Shown: positions 22,092-62,200, counted from the first letter of the stretch. The stretch: DNA of 64,000 bases from Sandaracinaceae bacterium (GCA_017881055.1 JADGRF010000013.1:75201-139200); one strand, 5' to 3'. Numbers and translations: made by a program. The notes: generated from the sequence alone by a model not told the origin.

Positions 22092-22541
22092 GTCGGAGCG
22101 GACCAGGTGATCGTCGGCTTCTTTAACTGTCCCGAGCTTCGGTTCGGGGGAAGAAAGAGCGGGAGGAAAGTCCGAGCTCCAAAGGACAGAATGCCGGTTA
22201 ATGGCCGGTGGGGGCGACCCCGAGGAAAGTGCCACAGAGAATGAACCGCCTTGGCCAATCACATACCCACCGAGCAGCCTTCGGCTCTCGGCGGACTACG
22301 GGGTTGCACAAGGTAAGGGTGAAAAGGCGAGGTAAGAGCTCACCGGGTCGGCGGTAACGTCGATCGCTAGGCAAACCCCATTCGGAGCAAGACGAAATAG
22401 GGAGGCGTTCGAGGGCGGTCCGCCCGAGCCTCCGGGTAGCGTCGCTCGAGGCGTGCGGTAACGCGCGTCCTAGATGAATGATCACCACCCGCATCCCGGC
22501 AACGGGTGCGGGAACAGGACTCGGCTTACGGTCCCTCCGAC
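22092..22541 (+). ncRNA. rnpB: RNase P RNA (type A), about 450 nt with extended P3 and P12
   Basis: GAGGAAAGTCCG, GGAAAGTGCCACAGA, GGTAAGGGTGAAA, GGCAAACCCC..GAGCAAG, ACAGGACTCGGCTTAC; ends pair (GTCGGAG/CTCCGAC). Confidence 0.96.
22261..22294 (+). repeat. Palindromic element (family 1) inside RNase P RNA P12
   Basis: ACATAC-CCACCGAG-C-AGCC-TTC-GGCT-CTCGGCGG. Confidence 0.8.
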
Positions 22542-22543
22542 CT

Positions 22544-44793: not shown

Positions 44794-45246
44794 AGCGATC
44801 CTCTTTTCGGCGTCTCAGCGCAGTTGTTGCCAAGCGCTCGCCAAAATCGCGAGCGGTGGGTCAAGGTGAGCAATTCGCGGACAACGCTACGTTGCGCGCA
44901 AAGCGGAAGTCAATTCGAATCTCGTCTTCATTGCTTAGCAGATGACAGATGCTGTCGTTTAAGTGAGAGCTAGCATCGGCGGGATCCATTGTGGACGGTT
45001 GTGTGATATCAGCGCATCGGAAGCTGGGCGATCCTTGCACACAACGGCGTTTTCCCTTGACAATTCGATTTTTAGCTTTCTATGATGGCCCCCGCTCCGG
45101 TCCGTAACCCATCGAATTTGCATATATTTTCGGTTTTCGGGGGGCGCGGACGGCGCGGACGCGACGGACGGACCGGACGAACCAAGCTTCAGCCTCTTCG
45201 GGAAAGACTCACCCACAGTCGTCAGTAGGACGATGGAGATACGCGG

Positions 45247-46986
45247 ATGTGCAGAAACCGAACACGTTGGTCGCTACTGACATACCCGCAGAGCAGCCGC
45301 TGGCTCTCTGCGGCGGTGACATACCCGCAGAGCAGCCGCTGGCTTTCTGCGGCGGTGACATACGCCGCACTGGCGCTCGTGGGCATTTCCGCGCCGGCCT
45401 TTGCGCAAGACATGCAGTTCGGCGTCGAGGAAACCGGCGCCGCGCCTTCGGGTCCGCCGGGTGAGGGCCCGCCCTCCGAGGCGCTCGCGAACGCGCTGCG
45501 TCTCTACACGCAGGAGCGCTATCCCGAGGCCTCGGTGCAGTTCCAGCGCGTAGTCGAAGGCGAAACGCCCGACGCGCCTGCCAACGTGCAGAAGTCGCAG
45601 TTCTTCTTGGGCAAGTGTCTCTACCATTTACACTACTACCAGTCGGCGCTCGCGGTGTTCGACGAGATCTCGGAGCAGGGCCGCAAGCATGTGTTCTTCG
45701 ATCAAACGCTGCAGTGGCTCGCGCAGCTAGCGTCGCAGCTGCCAGAGCCCGCAGGCATCATCGACAAGATTGGCCGCTTCGGTGTCGATCAGCTCGAGCA
45801 GTTCAACACGGCAGACAACGCCGATCTGTACAACCAGCTGCTGTATTTGATGGGTCGCTCGAAGTACAACCAGGGCGAGTTCGACAAGGCGATCGAGCTG
45901 TTCGAGAAGATCGACAAGCGTAACAAGTGGTACATCAAGGGCCGCTTCTTCGAGGGCATCTCGTACATCCGTATGCGCAAGGCGCAGCCGGCTGCCACGG
46001 CGTTCCGTTCGATCATCGATGCGATCGACGACGGTGACGTCGATGGCGTGGACGATGCAGAGCGCATGCGCGACCTCGGCTGGATCTCGCTCGCTCGCGT
46101 CTATTACACGGCGGCGAACAAGACGACGCCCGAGGGCGAGCGCAAGGTCGACGGCGTGTTACTCGGCAACGCGGTCGAGGCCTGGACGAAGATCGACAAC
46201 GACAGCGAGTACTGGCTGGACTCGCTGTTCGAAGCTTCGTGGGCCTTCTTCCTCGCGGACGAATACTCGCGTGCGCTTGGCAACGTGCACACGTTGAACT
46301 CACCGTACTTCAAGGGCTCGTTCTATCCGGAAGCGACCGTGCTCAAGGCCGTGGTCTTCTTCTCGAACTGCCAGATGAAGAACGCGACCGCGACGATCCA
46401 GTACTTCCATGAGCACTACGATCCGGTGAAGACGAAGCTCGACGAGATGCTCGCCAAATACAAAGACAACGCGCAGTTCTTCGAATTCTTGAAGAAAGTG
46501 CGTTCCGGCGATGCGAACTTGCCGCAGGAAGTGCGCGGCATCGTCACGTCGGCGCTGTCGGATCGTTCGGTGCTCGCGAACCTCGAGTACGTGACGTTGC
46601 TCGAGCAGGAAGAGAAGACGCTCAGCAAGTCGCCGTCGCAGTTCTCCAGCTCGTCGCTGGGCGCGCGCATCTTGCAGGACATCCTGGTCGCGAAGTCGTT
46701 CGCGGTCGACCAGGCCGGTGACACGGCCAAGGCTCGCTACAACCGCTTGATCGACGAGATGCAGGATCTCGCGAACCAGGCGGATACGGTCGAGATCGAA
46801 ATCCTCAACTACGAGCGTGGCGAGATGAAAGCCTCGCTCGCGGAATCGCAAGCTGCTGCCGGTCAGTCGACCGGTGGCAAGGTCTTCGTCTCCTCGGAGC
46901 ACAACGTTTGGCCGTTCAACGGCGAATATTGGCGCGACGAGCTCGGCTACTACCGTCAGGAAGTCACTTACCAGTGCAGAAGGTAA
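45247..46986 (+). CDS. gltC: Adventurous gliding motility TPR protein GltC
   Basis: GGAG RBS; signal peptide (lengthened by a repeat insertion); TPRs; C-terminal WPFNGEYWRDELGYY; context. Confidence 0.72.
   Translation: MCRNRTRWSLLTYPQSSRWLSAAVTYPQSSRWLSAAVTYAALALVGISAPAFAQDMQFGVEETGAAPSGPPGEGPPSEALANALRLYTQERYPEASVQFQRVVEGETPDAPANVQKSQFFLGKCLYHLHYYQSALAVFDEISEQGRKHVFFDQTLQWLAQLASQLPEPAGIIDKIGRFGVDQLEQFNTADNADLYNQLLYLMGRSKYNQGEFDKAIELFEKIDKRNKWYIKGRFFEGISYIRMRKAQPAATAFRSIIDAIDDGDVDGVDDAERMRDLGWISLARVYYTAANKTTPEGERKVDGVLLGNAVEAWTKIDNDSEYWLDSLFEASWAFFLADEYSRALGNVHTLNSPYFKGSFYPEATVLKAVVFFSNCQMKNATATIQYFHEHYDPVKTKLDEMLAKYKDNAQFFEFLKKVRSGDANLPQEVRGIVTSALSDRSVLANLEYVTLLEQEEKTLSKSPSQFSSSSLGARILQDILVAKSFAVDQAGDTAKARYNRLIDEMQDLANQADTVEIEILNYERGEMKASLAESQAAAGQSTGGKVFVSSEHNVWPFNGEYWRDELGYYRQEVTYQCRR
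45279..45363 (+). repeat. Two tandem 39-nt palindromic elements (family 1) plus a terminal GACATAC, in frame in the gltC signal peptide
   Basis: GACATACCCGCAGAGCAGCCGCTGGCTYTCTGCGGCGGT x2, then GACATAC; encodes TYPQSSRWLSAAV x2. Confidence 0.9.
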
Positions 46987-54976: not shown

Positions 54977-55070
54977 ACATACCCACGAAGCAGCCTTCGG
55001 ATCTTCCTTCGGCTCTTCGCGGGTGACATGCCCGCGAAGTAGCCTTCGGTTTTTCCTTCGGCTCTTCGCG
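54977..55070 (+). repeat. Two tandem 49-nt palindromic elements (family 1, extended loop) just after the gltG stop
   Basis: ACATRCCCRCGAAG-YAGCC-TTCGGWTYTTCCTTC-GGCT-CTTCGCG x2. Confidence 0.88.
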
Positions 55071-59200: not shown

Positions 59201-62200
59201 AACAGCCCGTCGACCGATCAGCGCGTCGAGCTGCTGCACCGCATGGCGGAGCTGTACGAGATCGCGCTCGACGACGCAGGCGGTGCGTTCAAGACGTTCG
59301 CGCGCGCGCTCGCTGAGGATCCTACCAATCCCACCACGCGTGATCAGCTCGATCGCCTAGGCATCAGCGCTGGCTCGCACGAAGCGCTGGCGCAGGTTTA
59401 CGAAGCGCAGGTGCAGGGCGCGACGGATCCCGCCGTGCTGGTCTCGTTGCACAGCAAAGCGGCTCAGATCCGTGAAGAGTCGCTCGGCGATGCCAATGGT
59501 GCGATCGGTCATTACCGGCGCGTGCTGGAGGTCGACGCGGCGAACCTCGATGCGGCGAGCGCGCTCGAACGCCTCTACCAGATGGCGGAGCGCTACGACG
59601 ACTTGGCGTTGATCTACCTCACGAAGTCGGCGCTGCTGACGGCGTCCGATGAGCGGAAGGACTATCTGTTCCGCGCCGGTGCGATCTACGAAGAAGTGCT
59701 GGAGCTTCCCGACGCAGCGATCGAAGTGTATCGGCGCGTGCTCGAGATCGAGGAGGATGATCTCCGCGCTCTCGACAAGCTGATCCAGCTGCACCTCAAG
59801 CTCTCGCAGTGGGAGAAGCTGCTCGGCGTGTATGGCCAGAAGGCCGACGTCGTTTCGGATCCCGATGAAAAGAAGGCGCTCTACCTGCAGATCGGTGGCG
59901 TCTACGAGCGCGAGCTGAAGCAGACCGAGAAGGCGATCGAGACGTATCAACGCGTGGTCGAGCTCGACCCCGACGACATAGCGGCGCTCGGACGCTTGGA
60001 TGCGTTGTTCCTCGCCAGTGATCGCTCCGAAGATTTGCTTTCGATCTTGGAGCGTGAAGCAGAGCTCGTGAGCGAGCCGCTGCAGGCGATCGACTTCCGC
60101 TATCGCATCGGTGAGCTGCACGAGCGTAAGCTGAACGACGCGTTCCGTGCCGTGGATGTGTACCGCGAGATCCTCGACGTAGTGCCCGATCACGCGGCCA
60201 CGCTGGCTGCGCTCGAGCGCATGATCGACGAAGAGCGCGAGCCAGTGGCGGCTGCGTGGGTGCTGGAGCCGATCTACCGCGCGTCGGTCGATTCGGCGCG
60301 CTTGTCGCGTTCGCTCGAAGTGCTGATCACCCACGAGGAAGATCCGGTCCGCAAGGTCGAGCTGCTCCATCAGGTGGCCGAGATCTACGAGGTACACCTC
60401 GAAGAGGGGCGTAAGGCGTTCGGCGCGTTCGCGCGTGCGTTCCCGGTCGACAGTCAGAACGAGAACACGCTGGCTGCGCTCGAGCGCTTGGCTGAGCGGT
60501 TGAACGCGTGGGGTGACCTCGCGACGCTCTACGACAAAGAGATCACGAGGCTGCGCGCCGACTCGCCGGGCATGGCGATCGATCTGGCGCTACGGCTTGC
60601 ACAGATCTTCGAAGTGCAGCTCGGCGATGTCGATGCCGCGATTGCTCGCTATCGCATCGTGTTCGAGACCGATCCTGCGCACGCGCAGGCCGTCGAGGCG
60701 CTCGAGCGCTTATACGAGGCGAGCGAGCGTTGGGAGCCGTTGGCCGAGATCCTCGAGCGCAAGGTCGAGATTGCGGGCAGCCCGGACGAGCTTCTGGCGA
60801 TTCACTTCAAGCTCGGTCAGCTGCTCGAGCATCGGCTCGGCAAGGTCGAGAAAGCAGTCGATCGCTATCGCGAGATTCTCGCGGCCGCACCTGAGCACGA
60901 AGAGGCGCTGCGCGCGCTCGAAGGCTTGTTTGGGAAGGGCGTGTTGCCGACCGAGATCGGCGAGATCTTAGAGCCGCTCTATCGCATGCAGGAGGCCTGG
61001 GATCGCCTGGTCGGTGTGCACGAAGTCGAGCTGCGCTCGCTCGCCGACAATAAGCAACGCGTGCTGATGATGCACCGAATAGCGGAGATCGCGGAGGAGC
61101 GCGCGAACGATCACGCGCTGGCGTTCTCGTGGATTCAGAAGGCGTTGATGGAAGATGCGACCAGCGATCATTCCATCTCGGAAGCAGAGCGCCTCGCTCC
61201 CATCGTGTCAACTGGAACAGCCTCCGGCTCTCCAGACAACGGCTTCGCGGTGCTGGCGAACACGTACGCGGTGATCGCGGAACAGCATGCCGAGAAGGAC
61301 GTTCGCATCGCGATCGCCAAGCGCCTGGCGCGTGTGTATGGCGAAGAGCTGCAGGACGTGGCGCGCGCCGAAGAGGCGTATCGCTACGTGATCGCGATGG
61401 ATGATCGCGACGAGGACGTGCTGATCGCGCTCGACAACATCTACACGGATCACGGTGCCGGCGAGGCGCTGGCCGAGGTGCTGAAGAAGCGCGTCGCTGC
61501 GGCCTCGGACGCCCGTGAGAAGGTGGAGCTCAGCCACCGGCTGGGTAACGTGCTGTGGAACGAGTGTCGTCGCACGGACGAGGCGATCGAAGTCTATCGC
61601 CACGTGCTCGCGAAGCTCGACGCACAGCACGAGGACACGCTGCACGCGCTGCAGAACGTGTACACGGTCACGCAGCAGTGGCCGCAGCTGTTCGAGGTCT
61701 ACGAGAAGGAGCTCGATGTGGTCGTGGGTGACTCGGCGCAGGCCGAGATCCTGGGACGCATGGCGGTGCTCGCGGCCGGCAAGCTCAATAACTACGAGCG
61801 TGCCGTCGAGCTCCTGCGCAAGGTGCTCGACTTGCTCGGCGAAGATCACGAAGCGCTCAATGCGCTCGGCAACATCTACGCGCAGCAAGAGAACTGGACA
61901 GATCTCGTCGACGTGTTGGAACGCGAAGTCGCGGTCGCAGAGACCGACGAGATGCGCATCCAGATTTACGGCGACTTGGGCCGGATCTGGTACGAGAAGC
62001 TGCATCGTGATCGCAACGCGCTCGAGAGCTGGGAGCGCGTGCTCGACATCGATCCGAGCAACACGGATGCGTTGTTCGCGATCGCCGCGATCCATCGTGC
62101 CGCGGCCTCGTGGAACGACCTCGTGGACACGTTGCACAGGTTGGTCGACGTAGGCGCCGGTTCGATGTTTGTGGAGCAGCCTTCGGCTCTCCGCGGCGGG

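Follow-up and report, generated by a model that had tools for sequence, protein, structure and literature searches.

The gene for a GltC-like protein (gltC) in a 64,000-nt stretch of DNA from a Sandaracinaceae bacterium (GCA_017881055.1, JADGRF010000013.1:75201-139200; the whole stretch is referred to here as the window) contains two tandem 39-nt units in its signal-peptide region, each with a short hairpin that belongs to a repeat family found in this genome and four relatives. We put the probability at roughly two in three (0.68) that the array goes back to one in-frame insertion of this clade-specific hairpin repeat followed by one local duplication, with the heptamer GACATAC at the start of each unit being the leader of the element. 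The array is a real feature of the gene and is well explained, and it is of interest mainly as a view onto the repeat family and not as a record of target-site duplication.

A tandem array in the signal-peptide region of gltC

The open reading frame (ORF) at 45247-46986 on the plus strand encodes a protein of 579 aa that matches the NCBIfam profile NF033756 (gliding_GltC) over profile positions 120-620 of 622 (281 bits, E = 2.1e-83) and also matches TPR Pfams. The score is below the equivalog cut-off of 450; the most suitable description of the gene is GltC-like, or orthologous within a distant order of myxobacteria. GltC orthologues were present in 41 of 41 related genomes. The Shine-Dalgarno sequence GGAG, read from the sequence at 45235-45238 on the plus strand, is located 8 nt ahead of the ATG.

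Tandem Repeats Finder identified a repeat with a period of 39 nt at 45278-45369 (2.3 copies, 96% matches, score 168). The 39-mer GACATACCCGCAGAGCAGCCGCTGGCTCTCTGCGGCGGT matches the plus strand at 45279-45317 (unit 1) with 0 mismatches and at 45318-45356 (unit 2) with 1 mismatch, and 100 shuffles yielded 0 matches. The sole base that separates the two full units is C45306 in unit 1 versus T45345 in unit 2. Unit 1 consists of the leader (G)ACATAC, a hairpin at 45286-45313 and the spacer CGGT (DNA fold -12.5 kcal/mol, z -3.7). The hairpin of unit 2 is located at 45325-45352, and T45345 turns a G-C pair of its stem into G-T (G-U in RNA).

GACATAC starts at 45279, 45318 and 45357. A T precedes it each time, which extends the repeated word to 8 nt (TGACATAC, starting at 45278, 45317 and 45356). 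The heptamer is not rare by itself, with 4 occurrences in the window versus 2.4 expected. Its third occurrence in gltC (45357-45363) is followed by GCCGCA, which takes the segment to 45369, the end of the array according to Tandem Repeats Finder. This segment (45357-45369, plus strand) represents a truncated third unit or a solo head and encodes Thr-Tyr-Ala-Ala of the h-region.

The reading frame of the ORF continues through the array and yields the peptide TYPQSSRWLSAAV twice. Removal of the 78 nt leaves MCRNRTRWSLLTYAALALVGISAPAFA|QD, with one copy of TGACATAC and a well-formed signal peptide of 27 aa. The first-pass annotation of this DNA had reported GACATAC at the same three positions, a one-base difference between two 39-nt units and a normal signal peptide of about 27 aa after deletion of both units, and each of these observations was confirmed.

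Start codon, signal peptide and orthologues

We aligned the start of gltC with the DNA of 8 genomes from the same GTDB family, 4 metagenome contigs and the Logan contig L131 (SRR22387758_63125). The latter encodes the closest known relative, P0002, which is the sister of the window GltC in the tree (support 94/89). The sequence GATGGAGA..ATG is kept in all of these, and all aligned orthologues retain GGAG-N8-ATG, the codons for M-C-(R/K/T)-N-R-T (TGC..CGAAC) and the ..A.A|QDMQFG end. Neither the 78 nt nor the TYPQSSRWLSAAV peptide is present in any of the 8 genomes, the 4 metagenome contigs, L131 or about 20 database proteins; the start codon is conserved and the insertion is lineage-specific. 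A search of 5.8 billion proteins yielded none above 88% identity to the window GltC, and a metagenome scan with the conserved 5' end of gltC recovered 4 relatives, of which 0 contained the insert.

The regions of the signal peptide and its cleavage site were assigned by inspection of the translation and the orthologues. The coding region for the signal peptide would cover 45247-45405 on the plus strand (53 aa), with the n-region MCRNRTRWS, the two inserted units, the h-region AAVTYAALALVGI, the c-region SAPAFA and a putative cleavage site AFA|QD. Five Arg and zero acidic residues precede AAVTYAALALVGI, which leads on to A-F-A|Q where the orthologues have A.A|QD. Each unit, in the frame used, contains no stop, one Arg and no acidic residue, and encodes the weakly hydrophobic WLSAAV. 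Among 55 homologues with a called N-terminus that begins with Met, mostly in the conserved MC.. context, the median length of the signal peptide was 26 aa (interquartile range 25-29), versus 53 aa in the window GltC, which is the longest. Judged by these comparisons, the signal peptide of GltC is about 26 aa longer than normal through a lineage-specific insertion. The identification of gltC (NF033756, E 2e-83) and the 26-aa lengthening proposed in the first-pass annotation are thus supported. The comparison of the N-terminus with orthologues, which the annotation had suggested, showed a conserved start and Shine-Dalgarno sequence; it revealed neither a start codon downstream of the repeats nor orthologues that share the inserted peptide, the two findings named there as contradicting a lengthened protein.

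We also considered that translation starts at GTG 45316, GTG 45355 or ATG 45412, in which case the repeats would form RNA hairpins in a 5' untranslated leader and the protein would not be lengthened. Each unit does end in an in-frame GTG, and a pair of stable hairpins in a leader could have a regulatory role. However, all orthologues keep a properly spaced GGAG, ATG 45247 and the MC(R/K)NRT n-region, the period of the array is a multiple of 3 with no stop in the frame of the gene, and the GTGs have no Shine-Dalgarno sequence (GGCGG only). Moreover, a start at 45355 would yield MTYAALALVGISAPAFA, with no basic n-region, and a start at 45412 would delete the signal peptide of a protein with homologues that are all secreted. 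We consider a downstream start to be very unlikely.

With translation from ATG 45247, the likeliest outcome would be a Sec signal peptide that still functions, with a long basic n-region, and a mature protein that is unchanged. Export has presumably continued and the insertion is presumably neutral; it would be tolerated because the signal peptide is cut off, leaving mature GltC as it was. At the RNA level, the two units can fold either as two hairpins or as one long hairpin across codons 14-36, and these structures possibly affect early elongation. The fold over the whole 191 nt is unremarkable (z -1.7).

A family of 34-nt hairpin elements

The source assembly is a single metagenome-assembled genome (MAG) of 5.88 Mb in 341 contigs, with a GC content of 66% and a completeness of 94%. 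The pattern CATACCC-N(2-8)-AGCAGCC has 87 matches in this assembly, as compared to 0-1 matches for a reversed-pattern control. The hairpin core AGCAGCC-NNN-GGCT is present in 185 copies distributed over 125 arrays, including 82 with a single copy, 30 with two, 10 with three, 2 with four and 1 with five copies.

The family consensus is (T)nACATAC-CCGCGGAG-C-AGCC-TTC-GGCT-CTCCGCGG. The element is about 34 nt long. A single-stranded ACATAC leader precedes a 28-nt stem-loop, which is made up of 8 bp, a bulged C, another 4 bp and a triloop (DNA fold -12.5 to -13.6 kcal/mol, z -3.7 to -5.4). Pairing is maintained in 93.4% of stem cells across 113 distinct copies. For the two variable pairs of the stem we counted 42 and 40 double-sided changes and just 3 and 1 unpaired cells, values that none of 500 shuffles reached. 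ACATAC directly abuts the hairpin in 106 of the 185 copies (57%; exact in 78, one mismatch in 28), and the other copies have other leaders. Adjacent copies are arranged head-to-tail in 61 pairs versus 0 inverted pairs, and the spacers between hairpins are identical inside one array and different from array to array.

The last 4-5 nt of the 3' arm correspond to host codons in leuS and in an ABC ATPase gene. Templating of the lower stem by the host flank was rejected as a general rule because the common lower-stem variants (GCGG, GCCG, GCGA and GCGC) recur at many unrelated loci. Searches for a known RNA family, using both gathering and E-value thresholds in Rfam, matched RNase P only. Half-hairpin copies, made of the head and 5' arm plus AGCAG(C) and ending at the apex, recur at array ends or alone (in contigs C223, C263, C234, C253, C100, C204 and others). 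Several contigs end inside arrays of the family (C12, C39/C273, C92/C225, C18/C300 and C41/C104); the repeat thus fragments the MAG, and the copy number is underestimated and should be taken as a lower bound.

In a comparison with related genomes, the head-plus-core pattern had 76 occurrences in the source genome, 57, 18 and 15 in three genomes of its genus and 3 in a genome from a sister genus, and was absent from 36 other relatives. The core alone occurred 176, 145, 42, 37 and 3 times in the element-bearing genomes and at most 2 times elsewhere. A scan of one genome per species (185,579 species) identified the pattern in only four MAGs, Sandaracinaceae bacterium Chersky_785, 'Proteobacteria bacterium' Chersky.17_24, Polyangiales bacterium SMAG_U2971 and Sandaracinaceae bacterium GL139_UP, in addition to one chance match. 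The family is restricted to the source genome and four related MAGs of the Sandaracinaceae, which places the source organism among the uncultured Sandaracinaceae (Myxococcota).

A probable single insertion with one local duplication

In both gltC units the lower stem is of the variant GCAG/CTGC and the loop reads GCT, and no other copy in the genome has these. The private stem and loop shared by the two units therefore argue for one insertion that was duplicated in place and not for two insertions. The units differ from each other by 1 nt, but from the consensus by several changes, including one compensated pair, which suggests that the insertion is older than the duplication. The first-pass annotation had described a recent duplication of two elements; recent holds relative to the insertion, while the unique stem variant and loop do not fit two separate insertions.

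According to the reconstruction that we favor, one copy of about 34 nt would have inserted in frame directly behind codon 11 of gltC, where the n-region of a Sec-type signal peptide meets the h-region. This copy and a 5-nt spacer would then have been duplicated once in situ to give the period of 39 nt, probably through slippage between the 8-nt TGACATAC words already present on either side of the first unit. The product would be a signal peptide of 53 aa with a long, positively charged n-region, in which the native h-region and AFA|QD are intact.

An assembly artefact generated by a dispersed repeat could in principle account for the copy number or even for the whole array, given that the MAG consists of 341 contigs, several of which break inside arrays of the family (see above). 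Yet both flanks of the array are gltC sequences collinear with the orthologues, no other place in the genome could supply the private stem variant and loop of the units, one base distinguishes the units from each other, and the array of 86 nt is shorter than a typical read. An artefact is in our view highly improbable.

Two relatives have hairpins at the corresponding position. The sister contig (L131:1230-1260) contains a perfect mini-palindrome, TCGAGC-TTC-GCTCGA, exactly at the insertion point after TGG TCG, and no 78 nt. It may be the collapsed remnant of an element and is a lead only; the same CGAGCTTCG form takes the place of the element in the P3 helix of the RNase P RNA gene (rnpB) of the window. 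The second case is P0019 (L130:1503-1650, JGI metagenome contig Ga0604630_0021867), a GltC of a different major clade with a signal peptide of 45 aa. A degenerate hairpin in its gene, CCCGCAGCGAGTTGGCTCGCTTCAGCGGCGGTGA, follows the same S-L-L position and resembles the window unit (local score 26; 1/2000 shuffles). Common ancestry of this hairpin and the gltC insert is disfavored by the tree, in which the two belong to different major clades that many insert-free lineages separate, and the hairpin could be a convergent insertion or a chance similarity.

The origin of GACATAC

GACATAC is the conserved single-stranded leader of the family itself and probably not the scar of an insertion. The third GACATAC in gltC is quite likely either a truncated third unit or a microhomology that enabled slippage. 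The first-pass annotation had instead interpreted the heptamer as a target-site duplication or as a site-specific insertion target, such that ACATAC (Thr-Tyr codons) pre-existed in gltC and each unit represents a separate integration. Consistent with a target, deletion of exactly 78 nt restores a well-formed signal peptide with one TGACATAC, and the 12-mer ACATACGCCGCA (window 45358-45369; C249:10935, minus strand) has just two occurrences in the genome, each immediately behind the last hairpin of an array.

Several other observations weigh against the reconstruction that we favor. The periodic region is 8 nt longer than two periods, three arrays (gltC, C249 and C304) terminate in an exact solo ACATAC versus 0.07 expected, and the Thr codon at the start of the third GACATAC lines up with a Thr of the sister protein P0002, all of which speak for a target or target-site duplication. 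The 8 extra nt mean that TGACATAC was present on both sides of the hairpin before the duplication, an arrangement also expected from a target-site duplication or a pre-existing target. In addition, the copy number in gltC is known from a single MAG assembly, and the evidence for the start codon and for continued export of GltC is comparative.

On the other hand, ACATAC is conserved as a leader at unrelated loci, and ACATAC is missing 3' of most of the 82 single copies. The partial copies at array termini have no fixed length (3-24 nt), and many are half-hairpins that end in ..AGCAG(C). We compared 9 filled sites with their empty counterparts (leuS, leuA, alaS, carB, gltB, C-N hydrolase, MaoC, C261 and ABC ATPase) and found no ACATAC in the empty alleles and no consistent duplication. 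The unique stem variant and loop that the two units share imply one event plus a duplication. Finally, ACATACGCCGCA was rejected as a conserved terminus or target, with 2 copies in the source genome and none in the four other element-bearing genomes. A pre-existing target or target-site duplication is thus unlikely, and the array, which probably reflects one insertion and an in situ duplication and not two insertions, is not the clearest record of the insertion mechanism for which it had been taken. Given the three arrays that end in a solo head, the ACATAC head may have some role in the addition of units.

Genomic locations and host genes

The genomic locations were scored with a crude gene caller based on GC at third codon positions that covered 51% of the genome, and the counts are therefore lower bounds. 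About a quarter of the arrays are located inside ORFs or structural RNA genes, nearly all of them in sense orientation. For coding-like ORFs, the numbers were 32 sense versus 3 antisense arrays (binomial P ~4e-7). The upstream gene is co-directional for 63 arrays versus 19 (binomial P ~1e-6), and about 27 arrays are located within 28 nt of a stop codon. In the related genomes, many copies are found in sense orientation 3-15 nt downstream of a stop codon, at sites that are empty in the source genome. An orientation set by replication was rejected, as local GC skew showed no link (44:38). The sense orientation points to selection or a mechanism that acts at the level of transcription or RNA.

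In at least 15 cases an array is in frame in a conserved gene. The hosts include pheS, gltB, carB, alaS, leuA and leuS, and genes for a C-N hydrolase (3 x 39 nt), a MaoC-like protein, a protein on C261 and an ABC-F protein (contigs C8, C13, C62, C154, C210, C326, C9, C244, C261 and C203). The peptides contributed by the element are usually of the form ..IPAEQPSALRG.., with AA(S/F)GS or TYPxSSxxLxAV in other cases. For all of the genes named here except the ABC-F gene, we retrieved orthologues from four related genomes with a query in which the flanks were concatenated. The orthologous sites are empty and located in variable loops, and the net insertions are 24-42 nt or 117 nt. The site in pheS is empty in three relatives and occupied by a degenerate copy in the fourth (G005).

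A second signal peptide contains the element in the same frame as in gltC. It belongs to a secreted TPR protein (C105:7947-8036), with the sequence MKVV-TYPRSSLRLCAV-LTLALVLLPLTAAA|ELPPW (MKVVTYPRSSLRLCAVLTLALVLLPLTAAA). In three related genomes (G001, G004 and G005) the orthologues of this protein have no element, and their signal peptides, at 22-24 aa, are 6-8 aa shorter.

Other copies are present in the window, all on the plus strand. A single copy at 22259-22297 is located in the P12 loop of the RNase P RNA (rnpB, 22095-22542; Rfam RF00010, 286.8 bits), as also seen in the alignment with relatives. The P12 copy was identified in genomes G000, G001 and G005 only, with compensatory stem differences between genomes (loci L086, L088 and L090), and the P3 helix has two copies in G001 and one in G005. 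Four element-free genomes had neither the P12 nor the P3 copies in rnpB, and the gene is 376-391 nt long in element-free genomes versus 448-494 nt in element-bearing ones. In the window itself, P3 of rnpB has the collapsed form CCCGAGCTTCGGTTCGGG in place of an element. Two tandem 49-nt variant units with the heads ACATACCC and ACATGCCC and an extra CTTCCTTCGG that forms a second small loop are located at 54977-55070, in the spacer between a stop codon and the start of the next gene. The second of these units has the mutated head, ACATGCCC, and the core AGTAGCC. Two copies have no head and are in frame: one at 62161-62199 in a giant TPR gene, with the peptide FVEQPSALRGG, and one in an ORF at approximately 2886-2922.

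Relationship to known repeats

In form and position the element resembles the REP, BIME and REPIN sequences, sharing with these a short (20-40 nt) imperfect palindrome, a single-stranded motif at the foot of the hairpin, hundreds of copies, compensatory stem variants, clustering in arrays and a frequent location just 3' of stop codons. The REP/REPIN systems of Proteobacteria have a RAYT transposase (Y1 HUH, IS200/IS605-like), whose gene usually has REPs on its flanks, a GTAG head and inverted doublets, and are extragenic. The element differs in having ACATAC(CC) as the head in 57% of copies instead of GTAG, in lacking inverted REPIN doublets (0 versus 61 same-orientation pairs), and in not being purely extragenic, given its presence in rnpB and in frame in at least 15 arrays in conserved genes. 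A cognate Y1 gene is also missing from the source genome, G004 and G009. Despite its REP-like form and position, the family does not belong to the REP/RAYT systems. It also differs from MITEs, which have terminal inverted repeats and a target-site duplication of fixed length, in that the 9 filled/empty pairs show no consistent target-site duplication, with flanking words of 0-24 nt.

Cyanobacteria reportedly contain very small dispersed repeats and STRR sequences, including inside the RNase P RNA. Like the element described here, the small hairpin repeats of cyanobacteria are located in intergenic regions, ORFs and variable helices of the RNase P RNA and are not known to have an associated transposase. 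The heptamer STRR are not hairpins, and the phylum and the sequences differ from those of the present element.

A further comparison is provided by the palindromic elements of Rickettsia, which are about 100-150 bp in size and are inserted in frame in unrelated housekeeping genes and in RNA genes, where they add a peptide to surface loops and leave the host gene intact (PMC10969869). The hairpin element likewise inserts in frame in unrelated ORFs and in RNA genes, and adds a conserved peptide. However, at 34-39 nt it is a quarter of the size, it forms tandem arrays, it is found in free-living Sandaracinaceae and it has no sequence similarity to the Rickettsia elements. As for the signal peptide, extended Sec signal peptides with long n-regions are also about 50 aa long and have an N-terminal extension before a normal h-region and an AXA site, whereas the extension in GltC is a recent insertion of selfish DNA with no counterpart in orthologues and not a conserved functional domain.

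Mobilization

Our search for mobilizing enzymes covered Y1 transposases only, and yielded 0 matches to the Y1/RAYT transposase domain (PF01797) in the source genome, G004 and G009. A strong Y1 match in G005 is not flanked by the element, and element-free genomes also carry Y1 genes. A RAYT/Y1 enzyme was rejected as the mobilizer, based on the absence of PF01797 from the source genome and the lack of correlation between its presence and that of the element across relatives. The enzyme or process that disperses the element is thus not an obvious RAYT.

More speculatively, the hairpins could be a new, very small mobile element that spreads without a RAYT, with an enzyme or a transcription-linked process that adds units in sense orientation at the ACATAC head or the apex. 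We are doubtful about this scenario. If true, such an addition of units could explain the head-to-tail arrays, the solo heads, the half-hairpins and the 32:3 sense bias, as well as the settling of the element in signal peptides, enzyme loops and RNase P RNA, and the gltC array would record the step at which units are added.

Implications

The array in gltC exposes a hitherto undescribed, clade-restricted family of 34-nt hairpins in uncultured Sandaracinaceae. For the annotation of these MAGs it serves as a warning, in that odd N-terminal extensions and loop inserts are derived from repeats. The family represents a tractable case for studies of how REP-like sequences spread and of how proteins and RNAs absorb them. 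In the case of GltC, the export signal has doubled in length while the mature protein would be untouched, which suggests that a cleavable signal peptide can serve as a safe harbor for selfish palindromic DNA.

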